Assembly (NCBI GenBank): GCA_964588355.1
Contig: CAZPPB010000002.1
Location: 16,218 to 80,217 of the forward strand
Length of the DNA: 64,000 bases
DNA from: an uncultured Spirochaetaceae bacterium
GTDB lineage: Bacteria; Spirochaetota; Spirochaetia; SZUA-6; DRHE01
Direction of reading: 5' to 3'
Position 1 is the first letter of the stretch. Each line of letters begins with the position of its first letter. Below, one piece after another: positions 26,286-59,642 of this stretch. A program made the position numbers and the translations under genes. The notes under the pieces are model-generated. The model had not been told where the DNA came from. It saw nothing but the letters and a program-made list of their open reading frames with translations, and searched no databases.

Positions 26286-26293
26286 GGGACCTC

Positions 26294-27430: not shown

Positions 27431-27506
27431 TGGGGAAACCTCATTTGGTGATTAAAGAGTAAGCAGGCATGGACGGCTCGTCGAACCGTCCATGCCCGAG
27501 AGTACG

Positions 27507-36316: not shown

Positions 36317-36355
36317 TGCGTCGCATCGGAAAAAAACTTTACTAAGGAGTTCGAT

Positions 36356-37618: not shown

Positions 37619-37629
37619 GTGAGGGGCGT

Positions 37630-39500: not shown

Positions 39501-39512
39501 CTCGATTGCCTC

Positions 39513-41134: not shown

Positions 41135-41170
41135 TCCTCTTTTCTCCTCTCGTGTATGGAAAATTATGAA

Positions 41171-41185
41171 GCAATACATGTGCCA
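41171..41185 (-). promoter_or_regulatory. sigma-54 (-24/-12) promoter: TGGCAC-N5-TTGC
   Basis: Minus-strand sequence CTGGCACATGTATTGCT matches TGGCACG-N4-TTGCW with exact GG..GC spacing; 35 nt upstream of the DUF47-PiT start codon. Confidence 0.6.
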
Positions 41186-41287
41186 GATTGTGACATCGAT
41201 GAAACGAATAGGACCCAAATGCTTTGGTTATAAAGAAATGAGAAAGAAGGCGATCGACGGAAGTGAGGTGGTGAAAGCAGTCGAAGC

Positions 41288-41324
41288 GTAAAGGAACTGT
41301 ACAGTCCTCGTACAGTTCCTTTAC
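41288..41324. promoter_or_regulatory. 15-bp perfect inverted repeat (GTAAAGGAACTGTAC-N7-GTACAGTTCCTTTAC)
   Basis: Read directly; overlaps the stop codon of the NtrC-type gene and lies ~120 bp upstream of the sigma-54 -24 element; could be a terminator hairpin, an enhancer site for a bacterial enhancer-binding protein (bEBP), or both. Confidence 0.6.
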
Positions 41325-42706: not shown

Positions 42707-42735
42707 AGCTCTTTCTCTCCTCTACTCGCTCTTCT

Positions 42736-44565: not shown

Positions 44566-44899
44566 AAGGAAGTATCTTTATTAGAAATTCGAGCAATGCC
44601 GTGGTGCGGACGGGGATCGGGATGAGTGCAGTTTTCCCCTTATTCTCTCTCTATTTTGCCCCATAATTGTCCTTGACATCCGGCCTGCACCTGCTTACTA
44701 ATTGGGAAGGAGACAGAGAGATGCGCTCCCTGAGTCTGTTGGCCGAAAAGCGGGGGGGGCGGCATCATTCCGGCGCCTCTGAACAAAGAGGTTGAAGCTC
44801 TCCAACGCCGTCTTAGGGGGACGATCCCCGGTCTGTTTTCGCGGAAAACGACCTGCGCGTCTACGGTACTATCACAGCATATCGGCACAGGGGGTAACG

Positions 44900-46096
44900 A
44901 TGAGTGAAACAATGAAAGCCGTCCGGCTCTATGCGGATTGGGATCCCAAACCGGATTTCAAACTGGGGGCGAAAGACATCGACAAGAAGCAGACCTATCT
45001 GGGAAGCAAGGTCTGGCGCAATCCCAGAATGAAGATCGAAGAGGTCCCGGTGCCCAAACCCGGACCGGGGCAGGTCCTGGTCCAGGTCAAGGCCTGCGGC
45101 ATCTGCGGAAGCGACGTACACATGGCTCAGGCGGATGCGGAGGGCTACATCTGGTACCCCGGACTGACCGGCTTCCCCTGCACCCTCGGCCATGAGATGT
45201 CCGGAGTGGTCGTGGAGGGAGGTCCCGGAGCTCTGGACAAGAAAACCAACAGACCCTTCAGAGGCGGGGAATGGGTATGCGTGGAAGAGATGATCTGGTG
45301 CGGGTCCTGTCGGCCCTGTGCGGACGGCTGGCCGAACCATTGCGAACGGCTGGACGAGATCGGCTTCAATGTAGACGGGGCGTTCACCCGCTACGTGGTG
45401 CTGCCTGCGCGGGTCCTGTGGAGCCTTGATCCCCTGCGGGAAACACACAGTGACCAGGATGTGTTCAAACTCGGCAGCATGGTGGAGCCGACCAGCGTGG
45501 CCTACAATGCGGTGATCGAGCGCGGAGGCGGAGTGCGGCCGGGAGACAATGTGGTGATCCTGGGGGGCGGCCCCGTTGGGCTGGCGGCCTGTGCCGTGTT
45601 GAAGCGAAACGGTGCTGCCAATGTGATCATCTCCGAGCCGGAGGAGGGGAGGGCGGAGATCGCCCGCAAGCTTGGCGCCGATCATGTAATCAACCCGAAG
45701 AAGGAGAGTATGGCTGATCGGGTGCTGGAGATCACCCACGGGATGGGGGCGTCGATCTACCTGGAGGCGACCGGTCTTCCGACCATAGTATACCCTGAAA
45801 TCGAGCGCTGTATCTGGGAAGGACGTACCTTGAACAGTACGGTCGTTGTGGTGGCCAGAGCGGATGCCAAGATTCCGGTCACCGGAGAGGTGCTCCAGGT
45901 ACGCCGGGCACGGATTGTCGGTTCACAAGGGCACTCGGGTCACGGCACCTTCCCCCGTGTTATCGCCTCGATGGCCGCCGGAATGAACATGCTTCCCATG
46001 ATGACCAAGACCATCGGATTGGATGAGGTTCCCAAGCACATAGAGATTCTGCGCACCGACAGACGTGAGGCCAAGATCACCTGTCTGATGGATTAG
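44900..46096 (+). CDS. zinc-binding medium-chain alcohol/polyol dehydrogenase
   Basis: GHEMSGVVVEGG (catalytic Zn region), C..C..C..C structural Zn cysteines (CGSCRPCADGWPNHC), Rossmann GGGPVGLAA; ATG 44900 after GGGGG. Confidence 0.8.
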   Translation: MSETMKAVRLYADWDPKPDFKLGAKDIDKKQTYLGSKVWRNPRMKIEEVPVPKPGPGQVLVQVKACGICGSDVHMAQADAEGYIWYPGLTGFPCTLGHEMSGVVVEGGPGALDKKTNRPFRGGEWVCVEEMIWCGSCRPCADGWPNHCERLDEIGFNVDGAFTRYVVLPARVLWSLDPLRETHSDQDVFKLGSMVEPTSVAYNAVIERGGGVRPGDNVVILGGGPVGLAACAVLKRNGAANVIISEPEEGRAEIARKLGADHVINPKKESMADRVLEITHGMGASIYLEATGLPTIVYPEIERCIWEGRTLNSTVVVVARADAKIPVTGEVLQVRRARIVGSQGHSGHGTFPRVIASMAAGMNMLPMMTKTIGLDEVPKHIEILRTDRREAKITCLMD

Positions 46097-46111
46097 GAGG
46101 CAGCCAGGCTT

Positions 46112-46750
46112 ATGTTGTGGAAAAAAGAGAAATCGATCATCGACAAAATAAAAACCTACCTCGATCAAGTGGACAGGTGCCGTAATAGCTTTCGTGAGTG
46201 CATCGAGAAACTGATTTTCGACCCTGAAAACAAGGAAAACCCGGCGATCGTCGAAGAGGTGCATCGATCGGAGTCCAAAGCCGACGATCTGCGCAGGACT
46301 GTCGAGCTCCAGTTGTACGAACGGGCTTTGATACCCGAATCCAGGGGGGATGTACTGGGTCTGCTGGAAACCATGGATGCGATCCCGGGTCTGTTTCAAT
46401 CTCTTTGCTATCAATTTCTGCTGGAAAAGATCGTTATTCCCGACAGGTTCAGGGAACGCTACCTGCACCTGGTGGATCTCAATCTCAAATCCTACGATCT
46501 GGTACGGGAGGCGGTGCTGGGTCTGTTTTACAACAAGGACGTCAAGGCTCAGACGGACCTGGTGGACGCTGTGGAAAGTGATTCCGACCACGCAGAGCGG
46601 AATCTGATCCGGGACATATTCAGCAGCAAGCTTGACAAAGCGGACAAAATATTACTGAAGGAAATCGTGATCAACACGGGAGACATTTCCGATCAGGCGG
46701 AGACTGTTAAAGACAGGTTGATTCTCGCCATCATCAAGCGGAAGATCTGA
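46112..46750 (+). CDS. DUF47-family protein (third copy)
   Basis: 212 aa, DUF47-like N-terminus, immediately upstream of second PiT gene. Confidence 0.65.
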   Translation: MLWKKEKSIIDKIKTYLDQVDRCRNSFRECIEKLIFDPENKENPAIVEEVHRSESKADDLRRTVELQLYERALIPESRGDVLGLLETMDAIPGLFQSLCYQFLLEKIVIPDRFRERYLHLVDLNLKSYDLVREAVLGLFYNKDVKAQTDLVDAVESDSDHAERNLIRDIFSSKLDKADKILLKEIVINTGDISDQAETVKDRLILAIIKRKI

Positions 46751-46753
46751 TAG

Positions 46754-47680
46754 ATGTACCGGCTGCTCAGCGGGGTCTTCTTGGGCTGGTCTCTTGGCGC
46801 CAACAATTCCGCCAATAACTTCGGAACCGCCGTGTACTCGCAAAAGATCCGCTATCGAACCGCGGTCATACTCTGCGCCGTTTTCGTGATCGTCGGAGCG
46901 CTGTTGGAAGGGCAGGCCGGGATGCACACCCTGGGCGGCCTGGTGGAACAGACCGCGGACAGCGCATTTGCAGCCACCCTGGCCGCGGCCCTGACCGCTA
47001 CACTCATGAGCGTCCTGAAACTGCCGGTCTCAACCTCCCAGGCCATGGTCGGGGCGATAATCGGCATCGGCATCCTTCGGGGTGAGGTAAATTTCAGCGG
47101 ATTGACCAAGGTTATGATCGCCTGGGTTGCTACGCCGGTAGGTACGATCATAGCCACCCTGATCCTCTATCCTCTGATCGGCTGGTTTCTGCGCCTGCTT
47201 CGCTTCAACATCTTTACCCGGGACCTGGTTCTCAAGTGGGGTCTGATAATCGCCGGCTGCTACGGTTCTTACGCCCTGGGAGCCAACAACGTGGCCAACG
47301 TGACCGGGTTGTACACCCAGACCGGACAACTTACGGTGTTTCAGGCCACTCTATTGGGAGGTGTAAGCATTGCCCTAGGCGCACTGACTTACAGCAGAAA
47401 TGTGATGATCACCGTTGGCAAGAAGCTTGTCAGCCTTGATCCTTTTAGTGCCTTTATCGCGGTTTTTTCTATGGCCGTAATCGTCCACGGTTTCGCGATC
47501 ATCGGCGTGCCGGTTTCCACATCCCAGGGGATTGTCGGCTCGGTGCTGGGAATCGGGATTCTAAAAGGGGTGCAGACTATCAAGATACGCACGCTTATAA
47601 TGATTCTGTTCGGCTGGATCGGGACGCCGTCGATCGCTCTGGTCCTCGCCTACCTCATGTTCCGGTTCGTGTATCTTTGA
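46754..47680 (+). CDS. inorganic phosphate transporter, PiT family (short form)
   Basis: N-terminal GWSLGANNSANNFGTAVYS PiT signature, ~8-9 TM, 308 aa. Confidence 0.8.
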   Translation: MYRLLSGVFLGWSLGANNSANNFGTAVYSQKIRYRTAVILCAVFVIVGALLEGQAGMHTLGGLVEQTADSAFAATLAAALTATLMSVLKLPVSTSQAMVGAIIGIGILRGEVNFSGLTKVMIAWVATPVGTIIATLILYPLIGWFLRLLRFNIFTRDLVLKWGLIIAGCYGSYALGANNVANVTGLYTQTGQLTVFQATLLGGVSIALGALTYSRNVMITVGKKLVSLDPFSAFIAVFSMAVIVHGFAIIGVPVSTSQGIVGSVLGIGILKGVQTIKIRTLIMILFGWIGTPSIALVLAYLMFRFVYL

Positions 47681-47693
47681 TCCATTGTTGCAG

Positions 47694-48170
47694 ATGCCCT
47701 TCCGGCCAAGCCCTGTGGGAAGATTCCCCGCGATATTGCACTATCTTCAGCTTGTTCGGATAATGCTATGGAGTGTGTACGACCTGGGGGCGGAGATCGG
47801 CGGTTATCTGGCGCGCAGGGCTGTGGAGGCCCTCGGGGTTAAACCTGCGGATGTCCAAAGCTACGGCAAAGGTGCCATTGTGGGGGTCGATGGCGAGATC
47901 GAACATGCCGCCGCCATTCTCCACCCCAGATTCGGCAAGCCCGTACGCGCAGCCGTGGAGAAGGGTGATGATATCATCCCCTCCACGAAGAAAATGGGCG
48001 GAGCCGGCGCTTCCATCACCATGCCGCTTACGAACAAGGACAGCATCTGGAGTTTTGACCATATGGACGCGGCGGAAATCAGCATACCCGATGCACCGCG
48101 TCCGGATGAAATCGTCGTGGCCGTGGTGGTCGCAGACCGCGGACGCCCGCTGGCCCGTGTGTCCACTTGA
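47694..48170 (+). CDS. amino-acid-synthesis-family-like protein (PF06684-like), N-terminally short
   Basis: YGKGAIVGVDGEIEHAAAILHP..IPDAPRPDEIVVAVVVADRGRPLARV matches my recollection of the family core; lacks the usual first ~50 residues. Confidence 0.5.
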   Translation: MPFRPSPVGRFPAILHYLQLVRIMLWSVYDLGAEIGGYLARRAVEALGVKPADVQSYGKGAIVGVDGEIEHAAAILHPRFGKPVRAAVEKGDDIIPSTKKMGGAGASITMPLTNKDSIWSFDHMDAAEISIPDAPRPDEIVVAVVVADRGRPLARVST

Positions 48171-48205
48171 GCAATATTCCGTTTACGTATGGGAGGAGTG
48201 ATGGT

Positions 48206-48517
48206 TTGATAAAAATCATGATCCTTTTGAAGAGGCAGGAACACCTCAGCTTCGAGGAATTCAAAAAATGGTGGCTTGGGCAGCATCAGGAAATGGCTGC
48301 TCAGATGCCGAAGCTCAGACGGGCATGCTTCAACCTGGTTCAGGGAGAAAAGGATGGTCTGTACGACGGTGTGTCCGAGCTCTGGTTTGACACCCTCGCT
48401 GATTTCGAATCGGCCTACCAATCGGAGATCGGCAAGAAGGTAGCCGCCGATTCACTGGCCCACGTGAGCAGGCGTGATCGGCTGATCGTCGAGGAGCATA
48501 CGATAGTCGGCGATTAG
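48206..48517 (+). CDS. EthD-domain protein (dimeric alpha+beta barrel)
   Basis: MIKIMILLKRQEHLSFEEFKKWWLGQH.. typical EthD N-terminus; TTG start with GGGAGGAG RBS 7 nt upstream. Confidence 0.55.
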   Translation: MIKIMILLKRQEHLSFEEFKKWWLGQHQEMAAQMPKLRRACFNLVQGEKDGLYDGVSELWFDTLADFESAYQSEIGKKVAADSLAHVSRRDRLIVEEHTIVGD

Positions 48518-48611
48518 GCGCCGCGGTGCTGGGATGGGCGCTTGTAGCCCCGGTGGTCGAACTCTGGAAGACGCTTCCGACAGTTGTCCCTGCTTGCGGC
48601 AGCACTACATC

Positions 48612-51185
48612 TCATTGCTCTGCCGGCAGTACACCACCTGCACTAGCCCAGTCCGGCGGAAGTGTACCTATACGAGAAATACGGTTAAAAATTTCCTCTG
48701 CTTCTTTCTTTTTACCGGCACGCGTGAGAAGTGTCGACAGGTCGGTAAGGTAGCCGACGGTATTTTCATGATCCGGACCGTCTGTACGTTCCTGGAACGC
48801 CAGGGCGTTGCGAAGAAGGCCTTCCGCTTCATCGTATTGTTCGAGTCCCACCAGCAACATGGCCAGGGTGTGAGTTGCCGCCACGGTTGAGGAGTTGTCC
48901 GATTCAAAAGCTTTTGAGTAGATCGATACCGAGCGGCGGGCGAGCGGCTCTCCTTCACGATAACGGCCGGACAAATATAGATCCCAGGCCACATTGTTTA
49001 GAAATTGGCCCATTTCGGCAAGGTTGTCGTCGGCGGTGAAAGCCAATTCCGCCCGGTCCAGATAATTGGCAGCCAGATTTTGATGCCCGAAAATGATGTA
49101 AAGTGCTCCGATGGATGCTATGGTCTCGGTATATTCGGGATCCTCGGGATCGAGGGACTCGGCGAAGCGGGTAAACAAATTGAGTTCATCCTCAGCTCTT
49201 TTCATGTCTCCGGAGCCGTAGAAACCGGTGATGCGATCGAAGAACCCGCTCGCTATCTGTGCCGTGTCGAATGACCTGATATCTCGCTGGAGGTCCTCAG
49301 GGAAATGGAAAGAGCGGAGGAGATCGAAGCAAAGTTCAGATTCTGAATGATTCTTTATAGAGGCACATTGGAGCAACCATAACTGATTGTCCCGAAACAG
49401 ATATACTTGAGTAAGCCGCATAGTCATCTGTTGGTTATCGACGTTAAACTTGATCCATTCGCCGGGAACTGAATCAATAGTTACGTCTTCCCGGGACACA
49501 ACCTCGGTTCCGGACATTGCACTTTTCATCGCTTCGACTAACATGGTTACAAACCATGTGGACACAGCGTTACTCGGAACGGGGATCAACACGACAGTGA
49601 TATTCGGATCGTAGCCAAAGCCCGTCCACAGCCCGCCTCCGAATTGTACGGTTACCTCAGGACCCATGGTCTGTTGAAAGAGCTCCGTGTCCACCGTCCA
49701 CCCCTCAGGGGCGAAACCGAAGTATTTTCTCCATTGTCGTACGGTTTCCGGATCATCGACTTTTTTCCCCTGCTGCTCGAGTGTTTCAGTTTCCGCATCC
49801 GGGCTTTGATCCTTCATTATGAAGGTCTGCGCGACCAGTTCAGGGGATGCTTCATCGATCTCGATTATATATCCCCCTGTCCAGTATCCTTCAGCATCCG
49901 ACACGGCAAGCGTGTGCTTTCCGGCCTTTGTCGCCTGGAAGGTAAGCCTGGAATTGAGGCCGAGGACTCCGCCTCCGCTGTCGTCATCCTCCACAGGAGT
50001 CGATACTCCGGCCATATCGATGCAGACATAAGGATCGATCATCACTGATTCAACCTCTACGGTCACCTTTTGGCCTTGCTGCAGGTCGATCACGAACCAA
50101 TCGTAGTCAAACGGAAAGTCCAGGTTGGCCGTGTAAGAATGTCCGACTTCCAGCTCCCGTGCATCGTCGGGATCTGATATCCGGGCCAGCGGTTGGTTGC
50201 TTTCAAGAAGGACTTCGCCCCTGCCCTCAACCATGGGTTCGACCATGACGTAATGAAAATCCTGCTGGGATTCTAAATAAAGGGTTTCGGTCATTCCTCC
50301 TTCAAGGTCGTCAGCTGAACCGAGGGTGTCGCCGTATCGATCGAGAATATACAATGCAATGTCCAGGTCACTTTGTGCCGTAAGGTCAATGGCTGAACCC
50401 GGAGCAGTCACCGCTACGTACACTCCTGTGTCCCAAACATTCTCGAGTGTGAACTCTTGAGTGGTACTCCCCTCCCCATACGAGAGCTCTCTGAGATCTA
50501 ATCCGGTCACATCGACGCCCGAGGTCATCTGCTCCAGCCTTTGCAGGACATCCTCAGCCGACGCTGCAAGTGCGAAGTTGTTCCCGGCCATCGACAGGCT
50601 CGAGATCCCGATGACTTCACCGCGGTCGGTGGCCAGCACGCCACCGCTCTGCCCGCCTGCGATCGCCGCATCCGTTTGGAAAAAGGTTAATTCAATCCTC
50701 GTCCACTCGCGAATACGTGAGAGAATGCCCCGTGTTATGGTGGGCTCAGGGAATGCCTCGGTCTCGACCGGATAGCCGATGAGATATACATCGCTGCCGA
50801 TTTCCACATTTTCCCGAGGCACAAAGGTGATAGCCGCAACATCAATGGCGACTGGACCGAGCAGAGCGAGATCCCCGATCAGATCGATGAAGGCGACGGG
50901 TACCTTCTGAAGTGCCGTGCCCTCGGCAAAGGTCACTCCGACCTCCGAGTATGGCCAAACAACATGGGCGTTGGTCAGAATATAACCATCGTCCATCAAT
51001 GTGCCGCTTCCGGAGCCCAAAGGTGTATACACGAAGGCCAGGGAAGGGCTGATTCGATCGTAAACCTCTTTCGCACTCAACAGCGGCAGAATATCGCTGT
51101 CCGTTCGGCTGAGCGTTGTTGTGCAACCGATGGTCAGGACGAAAAGAGTACAAGCACAAAGGAGTTTAACGATACCTCTATACAT
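48612..51185 (-). CDS. large lipoprotein with trypsin-like (S1) serine protease domain and C-terminal TPR repeats
   Basis: Signal/lipobox LTIGC; ILTNAHVV (His), GGQSGGVL (Ser) in N-terminal ~250 aa; C-terminal ~250 aa with TPR-like helical repeats (YDEAEGLLRNALAF..). Confidence 0.7.
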   Translation of the reverse strand: MYRGIVKLLCACTLFVLTIGCTTTLSRTDSDILPLLSAKEVYDRISPSLAFVYTPLGSGSGTLMDDGYILTNAHVVWPYSEVGVTFAEGTALQKVPVAFIDLIGDLALLGPVAIDVAAITFVPRENVEIGSDVYLIGYPVETEAFPEPTITRGILSRIREWTRIELTFFQTDAAIAGGQSGGVLATDRGEVIGISSLSMAGNNFALAASAEDVLQRLEQMTSGVDVTGLDLRELSYGEGSTTQEFTLENVWDTGVYVAVTAPGSAIDLTAQSDLDIALYILDRYGDTLGSADDLEGGMTETLYLESQQDFHYVMVEPMVEGRGEVLLESNQPLARISDPDDARELEVGHSYTANLDFPFDYDWFVIDLQQGQKVTVEVESVMIDPYVCIDMAGVSTPVEDDDSGGGVLGLNSRLTFQATKAGKHTLAVSDAEGYWTGGYIIEIDEASPELVAQTFIMKDQSPDAETETLEQQGKKVDDPETVRQWRKYFGFAPEGWTVDTELFQQTMGPEVTVQFGGGLWTGFGYDPNITVVLIPVPSNAVSTWFVTMLVEAMKSAMSGTEVVSREDVTIDSVPGEWIKFNVDNQQMTMRLTQVYLFRDNQLWLLQCASIKNHSESELCFDLLRSFHFPEDLQRDIRSFDTAQIASGFFDRITGFYGSGDMKRAEDELNLFTRFAESLDPEDPEYTETIASIGALYIIFGHQNLAANYLDRAELAFTADDNLAEMGQFLNNVAWDLYLSGRYREGEPLARRSVSIYSKAFESDNSSTVAATHTLAMLLVGLEQYDEAEGLLRNALAFQERTDGPDHENTVGYLTDLSTLLTRAGKKKEAEEIFNRISRIGTLPPDWASAGGVLPAEQ

Positions 51186-51561
51186 AACATTTACCTCCTA
51201 TCTCCATACCCGGACAGGCCAGTTTGAGAGACAGCAGACGGCGTCTGAATCAGCATCGAATACCCCAAGAGCAAAGACATGGTAATTCGAACTCCTTATC
51301 TGTTGTTATTGGTATTCCCTATCGGCCGACTCATCCGTAACCGTCCTCAATCTGAAGTAAGCAATTCTTATGCCATTCCTATGATTCAGTATAATTACTT
51401 AGGATGGAGATAATTAACTATTGCGTATACTTATGGGTCCGCAAGCTTCTGCAGTTTTTGTTGCGGATCTTTGGCAATGAAGTTACGCTGTACCACCTGT
51501 GACAAGACACCGGTTCTCTGGGAGGAATCGTGCTGCCCGAGCCGTTGCTCTGGTACTCGCC

Positions 51562-52440
51562 TTAGCTATATTTGCGTCGAATCAACTCTTCGACTTCCTT
51601 GGGAGAAGATCTGAACGGGCCGTTTCCCTCCATCTTGAGACTCGTGACTGCGGCAGCCCAGATCGTGGCCTCTGCAGGATCGCTCGTCAGTCGGCGACAG
51701 GCATAGGCGGCGATACAGGTGTCTCCGCGGCCGCTGCGGCCGATCAGCTCCCTGGGGAAGAATCCCGCTTCGTGAAATTGCCGACCGTCGTAGACCAGAA
51801 CCCCGTCCCTGTGGGTCAGGACGATCTCTCTCGAGCCCATGCCGAAGAGCATCCGCGCCGCCTCTCGCAGATCCCGGCTCCCGGTCAGGATCTCCGCCTC
51901 GGCTATATCCGCTTTCAAGAATTGGACCAGAGGGAGCACTTCTTCCCTCTCCGGCCAGGGTTCGGCAACCAGCAGGCCGTCCATAACCGACCGTACGTAT
52001 CCCTGTACGTCCAAGGCAATCATCGCCTTCCTCTGCTCAAGAGCCTGCAAGACATCCAGTCCCACCTCTCCTCGGAACGAGGCGCCCACCACTGCCGTCT
52101 TTGTACGAAGATCCGCCACCTGTTCCGGGTGGAAGGAGCCTGCAGATGCATCCACGAAGATCCGGCGTTCATCCGGATTGTTGCTGGGATAGACCAAACG
52201 GAGTCTGGTCGACTCGCGGGTATACTCGGGAAACACATCGATGCCCAGCGCTTCCAGCGATTTGACCACGTGAATGTCTTCAGCCGCCAGGCGTGTAACT
52301 GCGCAGGTTCTCAGGTCGAACCGGGCGGCGACATTGGCGCCGTAGTTGAAGGCCCCCCCATCCACCACGCGTTCTCCGCTTTGGTCGATAATTGTATCCT
52401 TGGTGTAGTTGCCGATGAAGGTCACATCGTAGCTCTTCAT
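51562..52440 (-). CDS. PfkB-family carbohydrate kinase
   Basis: GRSGRGDTCIAAY motif; start MKSYDVTFIGN with GGAGA RBS. Confidence 0.8.
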   Translation of the reverse strand: MKSYDVTFIGNYTKDTIIDQSGERVVDGGAFNYGANVAARFDLRTCAVTRLAAEDIHVVKSLEALGIDVFPEYTRESTRLRLVYPSNNPDERRIFVDASAGSFHPEQVADLRTKTAVVGASFRGEVGLDVLQALEQRKAMIALDVQGYVRSVMDGLLVAEPWPEREEVLPLVQFLKADIAEAEILTGSRDLREAARMLFGMGSREIVLTHRDGVLVYDGRQFHEAGFFPRELIGRSGRGDTCIAAYACRRLTSDPAEATIWAAAVTSLKMEGNGPFRSSPKEVEELIRRKYS

Positions 52441-52457
52441 TGCCGGGGTCTCCAATT

Positions 52458-53252
52458 TCAGGGAAAGGTCTCGCTCCAAAAGGCCCGGATTCGCTGCAAC
52501 GATTCCGTCGAGTCGCCTTCTGGACTGTACTCGAATCCGACGAAGCCGTTGTACCCGAAAGCGGCCAGGCGGGACAGGACGGATTTCCAGTCGATATTGC
52601 CCGTTCCCGGCTCGTGCCTGCCCGGAACATCGGCGACATGGATGTATCCGATATGTCTAACGTACTCCTTCAAGACGGCGGAAAGGTCGACCCCCATCAC
52701 GCCCAGGTGATACAGGTCACACAGCACCTTCAACCTGCTGTCACCGATTTCCTCTATCAGTTGCGCAGCCGTCTGTATATCGGACAGCCAATAACCGGGG
52801 TGGTCGATTCGGGTGTTCAGCGGCTCAAGAACCAGTTGGAGACCGGGGGGCAACAGCTCGAGAGCTTTCCCGAGGCCCAGTCGCGCATTTTTGTACTTTT
52901 GTTCGCCAGGAATTTCGGGGTAGGAATTTACAACCGCGCCGGTTTCGGTGAGCTCGTTACTGAGCAGCATCAGGGTCCCGCATTCCATAGACTCGGCGGT
53001 TTCAATACCAGCCTGCAGATCTTGAAGAAAAAGATCGTGGGTTTGCTCTGCTACCAGGCTGCCACGGCGGTGACCACTGAAGTTGACCACCCGCACCCCT
53101 TCTTGGCTGCAGGTGGCGGTGAGTGCCGGAATGTTTTTATCTCTCCAGCCCCAAAATTCGACGTATTCGAACCCCTGGCCGGCGATTCTGCGGATCTTTT
53201 CCAGCAGATGCAGTTCGGGGAAGAGCATCTCAAAGCAGATGACCGGCTTCAA
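52458..53252 (-). CDS. sugar phosphate isomerase/epimerase (xylose-isomerase-like TIM barrel; hydroxypyruvate-isomerase-like)
   Basis: 264 aa; FEYVEFW, LEPLN, HVADVPGRHEPGTG, GFEYSP features of the AP-endonuclease-2/Hyi-like family. Confidence 0.7.
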   Translation of the reverse strand: MKPVICFEMLFPELHLLEKIRRIAGQGFEYVEFWGWRDKNIPALTATCSQEGVRVVNFSGHRRGSLVAEQTHDLFLQDLQAGIETAESMECGTLMLLSNELTETGAVVNSYPEIPGEQKYKNARLGLGKALELLPPGLQLVLEPLNTRIDHPGYWLSDIQTAAQLIEEIGDSRLKVLCDLYHLGVMGVDLSAVLKEYVRHIGYIHVADVPGRHEPGTGNIDWKSVLSRLAAFGYNGFVGFEYSPEGDSTESLQRIRAFWSETFP

Positions 53253-53257
53253 CGAGT

Positions 53258-54346
53258 CTAGTCCTCCGCCGGCAGAATGTGAAGGCTCTTCTCCTTGAGA
53301 AGGATCGTCACCTCCTGATCGGTTGTGAAGAGGGTGTGCTCGCGGGGGTTGGGGACCTTAACGGTGATGAGCCTGTCTTCCAGTTCGACTTCATATACGA
53401 TCTCCGAGCCCAGGTATACCGATTCCTTGATCACTCCGGTGAGCCCCTTCCGCCTCTTCGATTCCAGTGCTACGGATTCGGGGCGGACCACGACGACCAC
53501 TTTCATACCCTCCACAAGGCTCTCCGTTACTGCGGACACCTTCAGCTTCGTTCCGTGCATATCCACTGTGGCGCTTGCCGGTGAGTCGATGGATGTGATC
53601 GTGGCCTCGAGGAAATTGGCTTTGCCTATAAAGTCTGCAACGAAGCGATTGGCCGGGTGGGCGTAGATTTCCGACGGGGTGCCGATCTGCTGAATTCGAC
53701 CTTCGTGCATGATCACGACCCTGTCGGACAGGGTCATGGCCTCCTCTTGGTCGTGAGTCACATAAACCGATGTGATGCCGACCCTGCGCTGGAGCTTGCG
53801 GATCTCGATGCGGGTGGATTCCCGCAGCTTGGCGTCGAGATTGGAAAGTGGCTCGTCCAGGAGAAGGACCTTGGGTTCCATGATCAACGAACGAGCCAGA
53901 CTGACCCGCTGCTGCTGGCCCCCGGACAGCTGTGCCGGGGAGCGGTTGCCCATCCCTTTCAGCCCCACCAGGCGCATCACTTCTTCGACTCGTTCTTTGA
54001 TTTGTTTACCGCTCACCCGATGGATCTTCAATCCGTATTGGATATTCTGAGCGACCGTCATGTGCGGGAACAGGGCGTAATTCTGAAACACCATGGTGGT
54101 GGGACGGCGGTTGGGCGGGACGTCGTTCAACCGTTCCCCATCCAGGTAGATGTCTCCGGAAGTCGGAAATTCGAAGCCCGCTATCATCCTCAGCGTGGTG
54201 GTCTTACCGCAGCCCGAAGGACCCAGCAGCGTGACCAATTCGCCTTCCTGCACCTGCAGGCTGACCTGATCCACCGCCACCACGGATTCCTTCGCGCCGC
54301 CGAATACCTTCACCAGATGGTTCAGTACCAGATAGTCATCCCTCAT
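53258..54346 (-). CDS. ABC transporter ATP-binding protein (FbpC/AfuC/PotA type)
   Basis: LLGPSGCGKTT, LSGGQQQRVSLARSL, LLLDEPLSNLD. Confidence 0.9.
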   Translation of the reverse strand: MRDDYLVLNHLVKVFGGAKESVVAVDQVSLQVQEGELVTLLGPSGCGKTTTLRMIAGFEFPTSGDIYLDGERLNDVPPNRRPTTMVFQNYALFPHMTVAQNIQYGLKIHRVSGKQIKERVEEVMRLVGLKGMGNRSPAQLSGGQQQRVSLARSLIMEPKVLLLDEPLSNLDAKLRESTRIEIRKLQRRVGITSVYVTHDQEEAMTLSDRVVIMHEGRIQQIGTPSEIYAHPANRFVADFIGKANFLEATITSIDSPASATVDMHGTKLKVSAVTESLVEGMKVVVVVRPESVALESKRRKGLTGVIKESVYLGSEIVYEVELEDRLITVKVPNPREHTLFTTDQEVTILLKEKSLHILPAED

Positions 54347-54356
54347 ACGCCACTCC

Positions 54357-56069
54357 TTAGCTGATTATAGTGGTGGTACGCACGCCCCGCCCGATCCGGT
54401 TGACCACCAGCTGGATGATGCCCAGGGAGATCATGACGATGACGATCAATAAAAGGCTCATGGCCGCCGCGGGTGCGTATTGGCTGTTGTCCACAAAACC
54501 GAGTATGGCCACCGTAATCAGGTTCCACTTTCCCGAGACCACGAAGATAACGGCGCTGATGGCGGTCATGGCCTTCACGAAACCGAAGGCCAGGCCGGAG
54601 AAGAAGGCCGGTGCGATCATAGGCAGGGTGATCTTGCGAAAGGTCGTGCTGCTGTCCGCTCCCAGGTCTGTAGAGGCTTCCTCGATCGCAGGGTCGATCT
54701 GCTGCAAGGCTGCTATTCCCGAGCGGATACCCACCGGCATGTTCCTGAAAAGGAGCAGCAGCACGATGATCCAGGCGGTGCCCGTCAGGATGAATGGAAA
54801 CAGGGCGGAGCGCTGGTTGAAGGCAAGGATGTAACCGATGCCCACCACGGTCCCGGGCACGGCGAAGGTCAGCATGGAGATGAACTCCATGACACCCCGG
54901 CCGATGAACCGCTTACGGATAACCAGAAAAGCGATGAACATACCCAGTAAACCGGTCAGCGGCGTGGCCAGTGTGGAAAGACTCAAAGAGTCGATGATGT
55001 AGCCCTTCCCGACGCGGAACATCTGGATGTAGTTGTTCAGCGTCAGTGTGCGATCCACCCCCCACAGTTTTTGAAAGGAACCATAGATGATCGTGCCGTA
55101 GAGCAGAAACACCATAGCCGTGAAGGCGATGCAGAGGGTGTACACCGGCACCTTGATATACCACTCCAGGCGCTTGATCGTCGCTGCAGTAGGTTTGCCC
55201 GTCACCGTAACGTAGCTTTTTCGGGAGACCCAGTACTTCTGAAGAAAGAAGGCCACAGTGGTGGGGATGAACAGCAGCACCGCCAGGGTGGCGCCCCGGG
55301 ACAGGTCGTACATGCCCGTGATCTGGAGAAAAGCCTGCACCGAGAGCACCCTGAAGTCCCCGGAAATGATCATCGGATTGCCGAAATCCGCCATGCTCTG
55401 AATGAACACCAGCAGCCAGGCGCTGGCGATCCCTGGGATCGACAAGGGAAGAGTTACGGTGGTAAATACTCTTGCCCGGGAGGCTCCCAGATCCATGGAA
55501 GCCTCCTCCAAGGCCGGATCGATGGCCTGGAGCACGCCGTAGAGAACGAGGAAGGCTGTAGGACCGTAGGCGATCGTTTCGACAAAAACCAGCCCTCCCA
55601 GCCCGTAGATCGAGTACTCACCAAGGATCCGCTTCAGGATGGGTGATAGGCTACCCGCGCGGCCGAACAGAAGGATCGTGGACAGGGCCACTACGAACGG
55701 TGGAGAAATGATGGGGAAGGTTATGGTCTGGCGGAAGAAGCCCTTCAACGGCAGGGGAGTGCGGGTCAGAGCGTAGGCGAATCCGAAGCCCATGATCGAA
55801 CCCGTGGTAGCGGTGATCGCTCCCAGTAGAATCGAGTTAAGGAACGGCTGGTAGTAGTAGCGAGCGGAAAACACGGCCGCATAGTTGGATGGATCGAACT
55901 TCTCGTCGACTACCAGACTGTAGCGGAAGACCTGGAATATGGGAAAGGCTACGAAGAGGATGAGGAAGTAGAAGATCGCCAGGATCGCCACCAGCAGCAA
56001 GGGCTCCTTCCATATGATCCGCATGCTGGCAATGATCTCTTTGGCACGGCGGGAGGTCGCATTCGTCAT
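54357..56069 (-). CDS. ABC transporter permease, fused two-domain FbpB/AfuB type
   Basis: 570 aa, two permease repeats (EEASMDLGASRARVF.. and EEASTDLGADSSTTFRKITLP). Confidence 0.85.
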   Translation of the reverse strand: MTNATSRRAKEIIASMRIIWKEPLLLVAILAIFYFLILFVAFPIFQVFRYSLVVDEKFDPSNYAAVFSARYYYQPFLNSILLGAITATTGSIMGFGFAYALTRTPLPLKGFFRQTITFPIISPPFVVALSTILLFGRAGSLSPILKRILGEYSIYGLGGLVFVETIAYGPTAFLVLYGVLQAIDPALEEASMDLGASRARVFTTVTLPLSIPGIASAWLLVFIQSMADFGNPMIISGDFRVLSVQAFLQITGMYDLSRGATLAVLLFIPTTVAFFLQKYWVSRKSYVTVTGKPTAATIKRLEWYIKVPVYTLCIAFTAMVFLLYGTIIYGSFQKLWGVDRTLTLNNYIQMFRVGKGYIIDSLSLSTLATPLTGLLGMFIAFLVIRKRFIGRGVMEFISMLTFAVPGTVVGIGYILAFNQRSALFPFILTGTAWIIVLLLLFRNMPVGIRSGIAALQQIDPAIEEASTDLGADSSTTFRKITLPMIAPAFFSGLAFGFVKAMTAISAVIFVVSGKWNLITVAILGFVDNSQYAPAAAMSLLLIVIVMISLGIIQLVVNRIGRGVRTTTIIS

Positions 56070-56163
56070 CTCTTTCTGGATGCCTCCTCGGATTATAGAG
56101 AAAAATCCCCACCCCTCAAAGGGTGAGGGGCGGGGAGATCTGTCTAAGTGGTATGGTCGCCGA

Positions 56164-57165
56164 TTACTTGCCGATCCGGTCCCGCCAGGCCTCGATCAGA
56201 CGATCCTTGTTTTCTCCGGCCCAGATGGCATCGTAGTCGATCAGCTTGACCTGATCCATGGTCACGGCTCCCGAAGCCACGGTGGCTTTGGGATTGACCG
56301 GCAGCCGGCTGTACTGCTGGAACAGGTCCTGGGCTTTTTTCGTGAAGCACCAGTCGATGAACTGTTTGCCCAGCTCCGGTTCGGGGCCGCCTTTGATCAG
56401 GGAAAGACCACCAACCTCGTATCCGGTTCCTTCTTCCGGGAAGGTCATGACCACCGGATAGCCCTGGTTGATCCCTTTGGCTACGATATCGTGGGAGAAG
56501 GCTATCCCCACGCCGACCTCTCCGAGACCCACCATGGGGATGCAGCCGGTGCCGGATTTCGTGTATTGGAATATGCTCTGTCTGTCGAACCGCTCCCACC
56601 AGTCGAGGGTTTCATCCTCACCGAGCATCTGCACCAGGGTGGCGTAGGTCGTATAGGCCGTGCCGGATGTGTAGGGATAGGCCATAGCCACGTTCTTGGC
56701 AAAGGCGGGATTCAGCAGGTCTCTCCAGGAAGTCGGAGCCTTTGCGCCCGTCTTGCTGAGGAAATCCTTGTTGCTGATGAAGCCGATCGCTCCTGTGTAG
56801 AAACCGGTCCACGCCCAGTCGTCTGCGTGGAGCTGTGGCTGGAGTTGAAAATCGGTGTTCGGGCGGTACGGAGCCAGCAGACCCTTGCTGGCCGCATTGA
56901 TGTGGGACGTGTTTGAGCCCGCATGCCAGACGCTGGACTGGGGATTGCTGGCCTCCGCCTCTACGCGGGCCAGGACCTCCCCGGAAGACATGCGCACCCA
57001 CTCCACGTCGATGCCGGTCTCCGCTTCGAAAGCCTCGATATAATACTGAGCCTCTTCGGTGTCGAAGGCCGTGTAGATGTGGAGCACTCGCGGCTCCTGC
57101 CCGGGGCTACCGAAGCCTGCCGCGGCAATTGCTGCGAGCAGCAATACCAGAAACAAACGTTTCAT
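56164..57165 (-). CDS. ABC transporter periplasmic substrate-binding protein (FbpA/AfuA family)
   Basis: Signal peptide MKRLFLVLLLAAIAAAGFG; SBP fold. Confidence 0.8.
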   Translation of the reverse strand: MKRLFLVLLLAAIAAAGFGSPGQEPRVLHIYTAFDTEEAQYYIEAFEAETGIDVEWVRMSSGEVLARVEAEASNPQSSVWHAGSNTSHINAASKGLLAPYRPNTDFQLQPQLHADDWAWTGFYTGAIGFISNKDFLSKTGAKAPTSWRDLLNPAFAKNVAMAYPYTSGTAYTTYATLVQMLGEDETLDWWERFDRQSIFQYTKSGTGCIPMVGLGEVGVGIAFSHDIVAKGINQGYPVVMTFPEEGTGYEVGGLSLIKGGPEPELGKQFIDWCFTKKAQDLFQQYSRLPVNPKATVASGAVTMDQVKLIDYDAIWAGENKDRLIEAWRDRIGK

Positions 57166-57414
57166 ATAAACCTCCTTGTTGTATTTTTTTGATAGTCGAG
57201 GTAAACGAATACATCAACTACCTGTTTTTTCTATCTCCTTACAATCATAACCTGGCGATATGGGCTGTCAAGGACATTTGCGATGGTATTTCTCGATCCG
57301 GCCGGGAATACCCCGCATCCCGCAGATTTCCTGGACGGATGGCATCCCCATCGTCTTGACTCCAGATCCTGGTAACATTTAGGCTTGAACCCGCCAGGAG
57401 GAAGGGAGCCGTCC

Positions 57415-58257
57415 ATGTTTAGTCGGACTCGTATAGCACTGAATCGCATCATCTATCCGAATCTCGATTTAGAAGGTTTTCTGGAACTGGCATCGGATCT
57501 CGGTCTGTCGATGGTGGAGCTGCGGAACGATCTTCCCGGCGGAAGAATCACCGACGGAATGGAACCACGGCAGGTGTGCGAGTTGGCTGATCATTATGGC
57601 GTTTCGATCGTTTCGATAAACGCTCTCCAGAAATTCAACCTGGCCGGGAATCTTCCGGCCGCCATGGAGGAGCTCAAAGCGCTCCTAGAACTTTCATCGG
57701 CTATTCACTGTCCGGCGGTCGTTCTCTGTCCCCTGAACGATCAGGACGATACAGGAGATCCGCAGCAGTGTTTCGAGCAAACCGTTAGATGCCTACAGGC
57801 CTTCCATCCGATGTTTGTTGATGCCGGCGCGCTCGGATATATCGAACCGCTCGGATTTGCCGAATCCTCTCTTTCTTCCCTGATCACCGCTCAGGCGGCG
57901 ATCAGGGAATCGAAGGCTCCTTGCTTTCGCCTTGTATATGACACGTTCCATCACTTTATTGGTCCAGACAGCCCAGAGAAGCTGAAGACAGAACTCGATG
58001 TGGGGCTGGTCGGGCTGATCCACGCCTCCGGCGTGGAGGAGGACCTCCAGAGGGAGCGATACAGGGATGGGCACCGCAGTTTGATCACGCAGGCCGATCG
58101 TTTTCGAAACGTTGAACAGATCTCTCTGTTGCTGAGCAGAGGCTACACCGGTCCTCTCTCCCTTGAACCGTTCGCATCTGAGATCCAGAATCTGCCGAGA
58201 GCTCAATTTGTCCGAGCCCTGAACCGCAGTCTCGATCTGCTATGCCGGCGGTTGTAG
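57415..58257 (+). CDS. sugar phosphate isomerase/epimerase (xylose-isomerase-like TIM barrel)
   Basis: 281 aa from MFSRTRIALN with GGAAGGGAG RBS; TIM-barrel family features (..YIEPLG.., ..DTFHH..). Confidence 0.65.
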   Translation: MFSRTRIALNRIIYPNLDLEGFLELASDLGLSMVELRNDLPGGRITDGMEPRQVCELADHYGVSIVSINALQKFNLAGNLPAAMEELKALLELSSAIHCPAVVLCPLNDQDDTGDPQQCFEQTVRCLQAFHPMFVDAGALGYIEPLGFAESSLSSLITAQAAIRESKAPCFRLVYDTFHHFIGPDSPEKLKTELDVGLVGLIHASGVEEDLQRERYRDGHRSLITQADRFRNVEQISLLLSRGYTGPLSLEPFASEIQNLPRAQFVRALNRSLDLLCRRL

Positions 58258-58406
58258 CTGGTAAATCTTCACCGGGTATTATCAGATCTGCACGACCTGA
58301 CCGGAATGACTCTTTAGATACATTCATCGTGAAGCTCAGGCCGATCGAATCTGTGTCTTTCGGCGCACTTGATCGTATCGTTACGGGTCTATACCGCTTC
58401 AGAAAA

Positions 58407-59642
58407 ATGAACTGCAGGGAGTGTAGGCTCAGCTTCAAACGGTTCCGTTACAATTCGGGGTTTGTTTCTCAACGAGTATCCTATGGTCCAGGAGTTAATA
58501 GTCGCCCGTATCCAGCCCACAGGGTGAAACCATGCACGAATCCTGACTGCAAGTACGAATACTTCCGTCCGTTCAGTTGTAAGTCGTTTTACTTCTGTCC
58601 TTCCTGCTCGCAGAAACGGACCCTGCTATTCTCCGAGTATATGAACGAGCGGCTCCTGCTGGCCTTGCTCCACCGGCAGTTCGTCTTCACTATACCCAAG
58701 CTCCTGCGGCCCTACTTCCGCCACAACCGCCGGCTGTTCTCGGAGATCAGCCGGCTCATCTTTGCGATACTCAAGCGGTTCTACGACAGAGCGGCGAAGA
58801 GGCCGGTTCGAACCGGAATGGTTCTGGCTTACCAGTTCCAGTCCTCAGGGGAGTTTTTGCGGTGGAATCCGCATTACCACTGCCTCGTGTTGGAGGGCGG
58901 GTTCGATGAGACTGGTAGATTTGTACATATCCCTTTAGGAAACCTCAATAGAATGTCAGAGTACTTCCGCCGAGTGATCATCAGGTTCTTCCTGGAAAAA
59001 GAGCTGATCAATGCCCATCTGGCAACCAGTTTGATCAACTGGCGACACTCAGGCTTTTCTGTTAATCACGAAGTTCGGATCCCCGCATTCTCTGACCAAG
59101 CCCGTAAAGCCCTCTCCCAATACATCGCCCGCCCACCTTTGTCTTTGAAGAAGATGAGTATCGAAGAGAATAGAGAGGCCACGGTGGTCTCCTACACTTC
59201 CGATAACGAATTCTTCAAGGGAAAGATCGAATCCTTCCCTGTGACCCGTTTCTTGTTGGAGCTGACACAACACATCCCTCCCCGTGGATTACAATATATC
59301 CGGCGATATGGATTGTATGCTTCCCGCACAAAGGGCAAGTGGCCGGATATGCCACTTGTGATGAGGCTCGCCCCTGCCGGATGGAAAGCCGAGCGCCTAC
59401 AGGCTTCTGAATCGATACAATCTTGCTATGATGAAGCAGCTGTTTCTGATCAAGAAAGCCGGTGCACCTGGGCCAGGCTCATCGCTCAGGTGTACGAAGT
59501 GGACCCCTTGACCTGCAGTAGATGCGGCTCGCAGATGCAGATCCTCGCCGTGATCACCGAGCCGGAAGAGGTCCGCAAGATCCTGCGGCATCTGGTGAAG
59601 ATCGGTCGATCGCCACCGGGGCTGGATCCAAACTTCGTGTAA
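58407..59642 (+). mobile_element. IS91-family (Y2, HUH rolling-circle) transposase gene
   Basis: N-terminal zinc ribbon C..C/CTNPDC/CPSC, HUH-like NPHYHCLVLEGG, C-terminal RYGLYASRTKGKW and CSRCGSQMQILAVIT typical of IS91/IS801 transposases. Confidence 0.7.

Follow-up and report, generated by a model that had tools for sequence, protein, structure and literature searches.

An AfuABC-type importer operon with a pyrophosphate-type kinase in an uncultured Spirochaetaceae bacterium and its possible place in inositol phosphate use

The 64,000-nucleotide stretch of contig CAZPPB010000002.1 analysed here (the window), from an uncultured Spirochaetaceae bacterium, contains a gene group, cluster C, in which an AfuABC-type ATP-binding cassette (ABC) importer is combined with a kinase and two triosephosphate isomerase (TIM) barrel proteins. 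Five genes lie on the minus strand. They encode an AfuA-type solute-binding protein (SBP) of 333 aa with a signal-like hydrophobic N-terminal segment (56164-57165; Pfam SBP_bac_8/1/6/11), an AfuB-like fused double permease of 570 aa (54357-56069; two BPD_transp_1 domains in Pfam), an AfuC/PotA-like ABC ATPase with a C-terminal TOBE domain (53258-54346; ABC_tran and TOBE_2), a Hyi/OtnI-like, xylose-isomerase-like TIM barrel with a TTG start codon, designated ISO1 (52458-53252; PF01261, E = 3e-33), and a ribokinase-family (PfkB-type) kinase of 292 aa (51562-52440), placed in the TM0415 clade by PDB matches and a residue signature. A second xylose-isomerase-like TIM barrel, TIM2 (57415-58257, plus strand; PF01261, E = 4e-22), is divergent from the SBP operon. 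The open reading frame (ORF) list, Pfam and NCBIfam bore out the original prediction for this locus in coordinates, strands and every domain call, for all seven ORFs when the transposase of a neighbouring IS91 element is included. The kinase ORF as called mechanically extends up to a TTG at 52479. Translation from the ATG at 52440 yields 292 aa, and two JGI metagenome contigs encode exactly this protein (100% identity), with the same ATPase and TIM-barrel genes upstream. Judged from full-length sequence matches (E < 1e-40), the folds of the cluster C proteins can be taken as fixed.

The five minus-strand genes are separated by 94, 10, 5 and 17 nt, a Shine-Dalgarno-like motif is present at each start, and a hairpin scan found no terminator at 53252-53258, the ISO1-ATPase junction with the 5-nt gap, where one had been named in advance as the sign of an operon boundary. 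Because of the short gaps, the ribosome-binding sites and the lack of a terminator at this junction, the SBP, permease, ATPase, ISO1 and kinase genes read as one operon, as had been proposed. The sole strong terminator-like hairpin of the operon is a GC-rich element in the SBP-permease spacer (56136-56106, minus strand), with a 13-pair stem that contains 9 G-C pairs and is followed by TTTTT. A CCCTGC/GCAGGG stem base and a U-run, with variable interior pairs, were found in 20 of 20 orthologous SBP-permease spacers inspected among 82, on contigs that range from Spirochaetota-like to Atribacterota-like, and the median minimum free energy over all 82 spacers was -33.7 kcal/mol. A hairpin after the SBP gene is the usual device that keeps the binding protein in excess, and this one is probably an attenuator or messenger RNA stabiliser that gives SBP excess rather than an operon boundary. 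The 249-nt divergent intergenic region contains a sigma-70-like promoter candidate for the SBP operon (57244-57271, minus strand; TTGACA-16-TATGAT, 11 of 12 matches), which is a consensus match only, the total of such sites in the region being equal to chance expectation.

The best PDB match of the SBP was AfuA (4R72; phmmer E = 1.4e-49, SBP residues 37-331 against 15-317 of 4R72; 36% identity), followed by 8X1A and by P5PA (6WCE), a binder of pyridoxal phosphate (PLP). Thirteen of the 17 AfuA pocket positions are identical in the SBP, including S37, T150, Y103, H205, D206 and E229. In AfuA numbering, the phosphate subsite is kept at S37, G38, S148, G149, T150, S184 and G185 (S61, G62, S167, G168, T169, S204 and G205 in the window SBP, with T60 replaced by S84), and the ring subsite at Y103, F203, H205, D206 and E229. 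H205, D206 and E229 are the sugar-coordinating motif by which Sit et al. define AfuA homologues, and mutation of this triad abolishes glucose 6-phosphate (G6P) binding by AfuA (PMC4546632). The corresponding residues of the window SBP, H225, D226 and E250, are invariant across the orthologue alignment; PLP-binding P5PA lacks D206 and E229 and has Ala at both positions (Pan et al.). Four pocket positions are changed with respect to AfuA (G36S, T60S, I186T and Q269R). The 16 closest kinase-linked orthologues, which are 67-91% identical to the window SBP, share all four without exception; among more distant orthologues, positions T60 and I186 vary and Q269 is retained in one. Because both the phosphate and the ring subsite of AfuA are kept, the imported molecule is probably already phosphorylated, and the logic of the locus would then differ from one of import, isomerisation and phosphorylation.

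The general plan of the transporter, with an SBP, a fused double permease and a PotA-like ATPase, is that of AfuABC of Actinobacillus pleuropneumoniae and Citrobacter rodentium (PMC4546632). Apart from the four pocket changes, cluster C differs in that its operon runs on into an isomerase and a pyrophosphate (PPi)-type kinase and is linked to inositol-catabolic and phosphate-transport genes, and in that its host is an uncultured Spirochaetaceae-like anaerobe, whereas the AfuABC hosts are gamma-proteobacterial pathogens. The cluster C permease is 75-95% identical to permeases of linked transporters in other phyla. The ATPase exceeds a curated cut-off solely for the generic potA subfamily model TIGR01187 (376 vs. 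356 bits) and is below the cut-off of every equivalog in NCBIfam, those for PotA, PhnT2, UgpC and the ferric ATPase included. If the database labels were right, the system would import 2-aminoethylphosphonate (2-AEP) or ferric iron and the enzymes would be unrelated neighbours. The top NCBIfam models are indeed phnS2, PhnU2 and PhnT2, and iron binders of the FbpA type appear in the PDB search; however, the scores fall short of the cut-offs for the SBP (197 vs. 393 bits for the 2-AEP model phnS2), the permease (315 vs. 593) and the ATPase (386 vs. 458), AfuA (E = 1e-49) is a far closer match than the ferric-iron binders (E = 1e-11 to 1e-4), no phn catabolic genes lie nearby, and the linkage of enzymes and transporter is conserved across phyla. 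We regard this explanation as extremely improbable.

Entries for TM0415 (7E4L, 1VK4 and 5YSP; E = 3e-42 to 1e-40) were the only strong solved relatives of the kinase, which can be aligned with TM0415 over almost its full length (E ~1e-41); its PfkB Pfam match is weak (35 bits). TM0415 uses PPi, not ATP, and Nagata et al. (2018, PMC5931981) defined five determinants and an RXGRGD motif, a signature that correctly foretold PPi use in two assayed homologues. The donor-signature residues K171, F221, R229, R232 and M266 of TM0415 correspond to K176, F227, R235, R238 and M270 of the cluster C kinase, and the motif with the catalytic Asp reads RSGRGD (R235-S-G-R-G-D240). None of the 13 aligned homologues, and no member of the kinase cluster of the 80 genome loci, deviates from the five residues or the motif, and a neighbouring ATP-type PfkB cluster (c31), which served as an internal control, lacked the signature residues. 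The kinase belongs to the pyrophosphate-dependent TM0415 clade and is predicted to use PPi rather than ATP.

The acceptor site is less completely conserved. In TM0415, D11, N78, Q141 and R145 together with S89 and L116 form the pattern associated with Ins(1)P formation (PMC5931981). D11, Q141 and R145 are kept in the kinase as D15, Q146 and R150 and do not vary among the aligned homologues, whereas L82, I94 and S121 stand where TM0415 has N78, S89 and L116. This is the pattern (N78L/S89(I or L)/L116S) of 'homolog 49' from Levilinea saccharolytica, whose locus is L081 in our set and whose kinase is 52% identical to that of cluster C. Homolog 49 yields several inositol phosphate (InsP) isomers, and its authors concluded that the genuine acceptor of TM0415-type kinases is unknown, especially for the homolog-49 type (PMC5931981). 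Myo-inositol, for which TM0415 has a Km of 12 mM, is the sole known acceptor of the clade; the 14 acceptors tried on the family included no sugar phosphate, 2-keto-3-deoxygluconate (KDG), fructose, glucose, ribose and xylose were inactive with the members tested, and keto-inositols or keto-gluconates were proposed as possible true acceptors (PMC5931981). The cluster C kinase shares with TM0415 and homolog 49 the donor signature, the motif and the three retained acceptor residues, but sits in an organophosphate-importer operon rather than in an enzyme operon such as TM0411-0416.

The original prediction had suggested a search for homology of the kinase to ketohexokinase or KDG kinase, and such homology was not upheld: the kinase matches no curated equivalog for either, the NCBIfam models for KDG kinase, tagatose kinase, 1-phosphofructokinase, ribokinase and IolC scored 20-28 bits against cut-offs of 216-440, and the TM0415 clade is the closer affiliation. 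An ATP-dependent kinase of this kind would have served a pathway that takes up an unusual sugar or keto-sugar in unphosphorylated form, isomerises it and then phosphorylates it. The domain set (SBP, permease, ATPase, two PF01261 barrels and PfkB) agrees with such a pathway, as do weak matches to the tagatose kinase and KDG kinase models (E ~1e-6). Against it stand the scores of these matches (28 bits vs. cut-offs of 420-440), the full set of residues for occlusion of the ATP pocket and for PPi binding, the inactivity of KDG and the four free sugars with tested clade members (PMC5931981), and an SBP that is AfuA-type and not of the sugar-binding CUT1/CUT2 types. This explanation appears very unlikely. 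Gene context ties the pathway to inositol, and the idea of an unusual keto-sugar survives in a loose sense, as inososes are keto-cyclitols; import of a free sugar followed by its phosphorylation agrees poorly with the AfuA-type SBP.

ISO1 scored below the NCBIfam cut-offs for Hyi (162 vs. 353 bits), OtnI (125 vs. 325) and IolO (62 vs. 300), and its PDB matches were 3NGF, YgbM (1K77), a 3-keto-glucoside 4-epimerase (6WN6) and TM0416. It is a facultative member of the operon, being absent from loci L003 and L006 and present in L004, L005, L007 and L009, and its family occurs elsewhere in IolM-IolN-ISO1-kinase runs. TIM2 matched no NCBIfam family, that of IolO included, and ISO1 and TIM15 were rejected as true orthologues of IolO because neither reaches the NCBIfam cut-off. 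The PDB matches of TIM2 were 2Q02 and 4HGX (E = 6e-51); the alignment reaches residue 277 of 280, so TIM2 appears intact. We take 2Q02, with which it aligns over its full length, to be STM4435 (IolI2) of Salmonella Typhimurium. The Salmonella iolI2 gene lies within the myo-inositol island GEI4417/4436, and IolI2 is uncharacterised and dispensable for growth on inositol in vitro (PMC10783015); the homology of TIM2 therefore gives an association with a pathway and not a reaction. TIM2 was linked to the transporter or the kinase in L006, L040-L043, L057 and L059 and in 15 of 80 metagenome loci, and in Atribacterota its homologue lies directly upstream of the kinase. The inclusion of this divergent gene in the module was thus supported by relatives from other phyla.

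Linkage between transporter and enzymes was computed directly and in both directions, as were gene content, homology and conserved motifs. The kinase search used one genome per species and covered at least 548 species, of which the best 80 loci were examined; an importer was counted when an Afu-type SBP or permease lay within five genes of the kinase. Afu-type importers were found at 20 of the 80 loci, and a major facilitator superfamily (MFS) protein of the organophosphate:phosphate antiporter (OPA) family (UhpC/PgtP/GlpT-like) was encoded immediately upstream of the kinase at 19, while no locus had both. IolG, IolM or IolN was present at 25 of 80 loci (representatives of all three scored above their curated cut-offs), and PiT, PhoU_div, a beta-propeller phytase, a metallophosphoesterase or a PPi-dependent phosphofructokinase (PPi-PFK) at 31 of 80; PHO4 or PhoU_div adjoin the kinase in further loci. 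The count from the SBP side covered 58 metagenome loci in which the transporter was complete. A PPi-type kinase was present in 41 of these, IolG, IolM or IolN in 19, and either in 49; a PPi-PFK lay beside the transporter in 19 of 58, in some cases with Gnd. In L100, L101 and L117 the transporter is located inside an IolN-IolM-iso-SBP-perm-ATPase-IolG-iso run, and its import would therefore feed a Thermotoga-type inositol pathway. We consider it likely that the organophosphate importer is functionally coupled to the PPi-type kinase in inositol-related metabolism.

Since OPA-family MFS proteins take the place immediately upstream of the kinase and never occur together with the Afu-type importer, the two are suggested to play equivalent roles. 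The MFS representative scored below its curated cut-off (272 vs. 564 bits). The antiporters UhpT, UhpC, GlpT and PgtP would be functional analogues of the importer, although they belong to an unrelated protein family with another energy coupling and none is encoded in cluster C. The homolog-49-type kinase is connected with two unrelated sorts of organophosphate importer and, across hundreds of uncultured species with at least eight phylum-level labels, with IolG/IolM/IolN, phytase, phosphate transporters and PPi-PFK. This context narrows the candidate substrates to phosphorylated cyclitols or hexoses.

The same loci bear on the possibility that free myo-, scyllo- or chiro-inositol or an inosose is imported and that the kinase runs in the forward direction, with PPi used to trap this compound or a keto-acid further down the pathway (5-keto-L-gluconate or tagaturonate, for example). 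L100 and L101 combine the transporter with IolG/M/N and have no kinase; the acceptors proposed by Nagata et al. (PMC5931981) were keto-inositols and keto-gluconates; and ISO1 resembles (OtnI, 125 bits) the isomerases that precede the kinase step in acid-sugar pathways. Zhang et al. are said to have described this order of isomerase and kinase in 2016. Import of a free cyclitol is nevertheless difficult to reconcile with the complete AfuA phosphate subsite of the SBP, with the mutually exclusive alternation of the importer and an organophosphate antiporter-family MFS beside the same kinase, and with the coexistence of ribose-type ABC systems for free inositol with the kinase and the MFS in phytase loci. 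It seems distinctly unlikely.

Across phyla, identity to the window proteins was 73-83% for the SBP, 75-80% for the permease, 61-69% for the ATPase, 51-54% for the kinase and 41-55% for the TIM barrels (L042, L043, L049, L057-L059 and L093-L162). The better conservation of SBP and permease than of kinase and TIM barrels, and the shared hairpin sequence, suggest that the transporter block has spread horizontally, and recently, among anaerobes of sediments and digesters. Exchange of the module between phyla appears to have taken place.

Genes of the inositol pathway are also found near cluster C itself. An operon that converges on cluster C begins with IolM, scyllo-inosose 3-dehydrogenase (44792-46096, plus strand; NCBIfam equivalog, 515.5 bits vs. 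a cut-off of 450), which lies 5.5 kb from cluster C, and continues in the same direction with PhoU_div (DUF47) and a PHO4/PiT-family phosphate transporter (46112-47680, plus strand; Pfam). Nucleotide identity of ~80% and conserved gene order tie 40000-47680 and 51562-58255 to contigs of Spirochaetaceae metagenome-assembled genomes (MAGs). In these MAGs TIM2 is divergent from SBP-permease-ATPase-(ISO1)-kinase, which converges with PiT-PhoU_div-IolG-(IolN)-IolM. In L005, a PhoU_div/PiT pair with 85-93% identity to that of the window is found 58 nt from the stop of the kinase gene. IolM is syntenic with its counterparts in L003, L005, L006 and L009, where it is followed by IolG and, in L003 and L009, also by IolN; IolG and IolN of syntenic relatives score above their curated cut-offs. 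In the window, PhoU_div follows IolM after 15 nt (46096-46112), and IolG and IolN are cleanly gone in comparison with L003, L005, L006, L009 and L087. No IolG or IolN was found at the equivalog level in the 64-kb window, the lone match scoring 68 bits.

These features can be compared with the Thermotoga-type IolG-IolM-IolN-IolO pathway in the form in which it is summarised in PMC5931981. The window holds IolM above the cut-off, and, as in the TM0411-TM0416 operon outlined there, the kinase and PF01261 TIM barrels accompany Iol genes. The window differs from that pathway in that neither ISO1 nor TIM2 qualifies as IolO under the curated model, there is no IolG or IolN at this position, and the transporter is Afu-type, not a sugar-type ABC system.

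In our proposal, a conserved module couples organophosphate uptake to inositol catabolism and cluster C forms one arm of it, a reading for which we consider the chances about evenly balanced. From the features above we infer as follows which ligand is bound, in which direction the kinase works and what the TIM barrels catalyse. The exported AfuA-type SBP would capture a phosphorylated cyclic polyol or sugar, most likely myo-inositol monophosphate released by phytate or phospholipid breakdown, and the AfuB-like fused permease and AfuC-like ATPase would import it, with the hairpin keeping the SBP transcript in excess. Inositol monophosphate is favoured because it fits the pocket chemistry and the phytase and Iol context and because inositol is the sole known acceptor of the kinase clade; that the ligand is an inositol phosphate is nonetheless a tentative assignment, somewhat short of an even chance. 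The kinase, the product of the last gene of the transcript, has an ATP pocket that is predicted to be occluded and would move a phosphoryl group between PPi/Pi (inorganic phosphate) and an inositol-type acceptor. Where a phosphoryl group passes from PPi to a sugar hydroxyl, as in PPi-PFK, the reaction lies near equilibrium, and the reverse direction, inositol-P + Pi -> inositol + PPi, could run close to equilibrium as well. This direction is favoured in the proposal because cluster C contains no phosphatase, the import is probably of a phosphorylated compound and IolG needs a free cyclitol; its Spirochaetaceae relatives likewise encode no phosphatase in the cluster. That the kinase does run in the PPi-forming direction in vivo is possible but doubtful. 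The free cyclitol would then enter the Thermotoga-type route via IolG, IolM and IolN, ISO1 and TIM2 could act as isomerases or epimerases of inososes or keto-acids, and the convergent PhoU_div/PiT pair may balance phosphate. PPi-dependent glycolytic enzymes, for instance the PPi-PFK that many loci encode close by, could then consume the PPi so formed. The adjacent PiT, and PPi-PFK in other phyla, fit such a Pi/PPi economy.

A number of observations weigh against this proposal. The ring residues of AfuA would fit hexose 6-phosphates, the proven AfuA ligands, equally well. ISO1 and TIM2 reach no curated family threshold. The local inositol pathway may be truncated, as it looks to be unless IolG and IolN are encoded elsewhere in the genome, and an IS91 element and a window-specific insertion of 3.9 kb (47684-51560) lie nearby, the latter between the PiT gene and the kinase. 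In Atribacterota the module adjoins PPi-PFK, Gnd and a LarA-like hexonate epimerase and not IolG/M/N. L100 and L101 dispense with the kinase, and an organophosphate importer is conversely not a universal partner of TM0415-type kinases. Thermotoga maritima is reportedly predicted to import free inositol by a sugar-type ABC system, despite the presence of TM0415 in an inositol operon. Furthermore, the protein unk20, which is encoded beside the SBP in many Atribacterota-type loci, could be a phosphatase or a mutase of the pathway, and if it were a phosphatase the reverse kinase reaction could be superfluous.

Several of these points would be expected if the importer acted as a canonical AfuABC system for hexose or heptose 6-phosphates (G6P, fructose 6-phosphate or sedoheptulose 7-phosphate), with the kinase and TIM barrels acting on sugar phosphates, for example by epimerisation and PPi-dependent phosphorylation to a bisphosphate that enters glycolysis or the pentose-phosphate pathway. 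The intact H205/D206/E229 triad, the PPi-PFK beside the transporter in 19 of 58 loci with Gnd in some, and the absence of sugar phosphates from the 14 acceptors tried on the kinase family (PMC5931981) are all in keeping with this. On the other hand, the four pocket substitutions, Q269R among them, are invariant in the 16 closest orthologues, myo-inositol is the only acceptor known for the kinase clade (PMC5931981), IolG, IolM and IolN recur with both kinase and transporter and IolM lies near cluster C, and afuABC loci as described contain no such isomerase or kinase genes (PMC4546632). Use of hexose or heptose phosphates is rather unlikely on balance. If the ligand were an ordinary hexose 6-phosphate, cluster C would provide a modest new context for a known transporter.

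The components of cluster C, an AfuABC-type importer, a TM0415-clade kinase and PF01261 enzymes, are of known kinds. In the literature searched, we found no description of the union of importer, kinase and TIM barrels in one operon, of the distinct SBP pocket, of the exclusive alternation with UhpC/GlpT-like antiporters, or of the tie to IolG/M/N and phytase; nor did the search find a paper in which AfuA-type importers are linked to inositol, or later work on which acceptor the TM0415 kinase clade uses physiologically. The main value of the inositol phosphate proposal lies in a concrete hypothesis for an orphan family of PPi-dependent enzymes. If true, it would widen the substrate range of AfuABC-type importers, which are still widely annotated as iron or phosphonate systems, and would give sediment and digester anaerobes a route to inositol phosphates, a major pool of organic phosphorus, that might include energy conservation at the level of PPi. 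In its strongest form, which we consider possible but not probable, the TM0415-family enzyme would be a physiological InsP:phosphate phosphotransferase that conserves the energy of the ester bond as PPi. For anaerobes that grow on inositol phosphates derived from phytate, such an enzyme would be an energy-conserving substitute for inositol monophosphatase, and it would explain why a PPi enzyme with an inositol Km of 12 mM is found in inositol catabolic operons.

Two further features were observed in the related loci. In 34 of 80 metagenome loci the gene that directly precedes the SBP gene encodes unk20, a protein of ~347 aa with a HAD-like DTDGC motif, and PPi-PFK usually comes before it; unk20 had no match in Pfam, NCBIfam or the PDB, occurs in L097-L162 (e.g. 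L106 and L143) and in L025, L029 and L058, and is absent from the window. Loci that resemble phytate-utilisation loci were seen in MAGs of Cytophagia, Melioribacter and Fidelibacterota type (L026, L027, L031, L038, L055, L068 and L074). These encode, in order, a ribose-type ABC system, two IolG proteins, a UhpC/GlpT-like MFS protein, the PPi-type kinase, a lipoprotein metallophosphoesterase, a protein of ~930 aa that resembles a TonB-dependent receptor (recognised by eye, without a family search) and a lipoprotein beta-propeller phytase.

The insertion at 47684-51560 encodes a family-less ORF of 186 aa and a trypsin-like protease of 857 aa with PPC and TPR domains. At the TIM2 end of cluster C, nucleotide homology with the closest relatives stops at 58255, the end of TIM2, where an IS91-family transposase ORF begins (58242-59642, plus strand; transpos_IS91, 125.9 vs. 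125 bits; Y2_Tnp and Zn_Tnp_IS91). The element thus lies immediately beside cluster C, as had been noted in the original prediction, and marks the boundary of the module rather than a member of it; an empty site is not definable, as the flank beyond TIM2 in the relatives is non-homologous to the window.

Cluster C was originally described as a repeat of two other clusters, which might be recent duplicates. Three ABC systems with fused double permeases are indeed present in the window (24591-28487, 34487-38721 and cluster C), but the identities between their components are 28-48% (SBPs 30%, permeases 28-34%, ATPases 40-48%; kinases 37%), and the importers are, by these values, old paralogues and not recent duplicates. 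The system at 24591-28487 is also Afu-type. Its SBP (27507-28487) has G, N and R in place of the H/D/E triad, and because it lacks this sugar triad the paralogous importers probably carry different organophosphates. A second PPi-signature kinase (29193-30203, minus strand), with RxGRGD and the K, F, R, R and M residues, has a TM0415-type pocket in which N78 and L116 are kept, and adjoins this system and a HAD hydrolase (28603-29175); each kinase subtype in the window thus has its own organophosphate-type importer. Between the second kinase and a HAD/SIS/MFS group, short adjoining ORFs (30397-31306, minus strand) cover just the PGM_PMM domain II of a phosphoglucomutase/phosphomannomutase and are possibly a frameshifted pseudogene. 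In the third system, a 420-aa protein (36356-37618, plus strand) encoded between the fused permease and the ATPase has no Pfam or NCBIfam family. It shows a weak similarity to the cluster-X SBP (26% over 169 aa) and is probably a divergent binding protein.

Control of cluster C by sigma-54 and a neighbouring NtrC-type regulator was considered and rejected, as there is no site upstream of the cluster and the total count of sites equals that expected by chance. A sigma-54-like -24/-12 site with one mismatch precedes the trypsin/TPR gene of the insertion (51360-51375). A perfect sigma-54 -24/-12 consensus (TGGCACATGTATTGCT) is located at 41170-41185 on the minus strand, upstream of an operon that encodes an unknown protein, PHO4 and PhoU_div, and is adjoined by genes for a sigma-54-dependent response regulator (41321-42706) and a dCache_3 histidine kinase (42736-44565). 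The block from 38880 to 44565, which is syntenic in Spirochaetaceae MAGs, looks like a phosphate- or organophosphate-sensing regulon.

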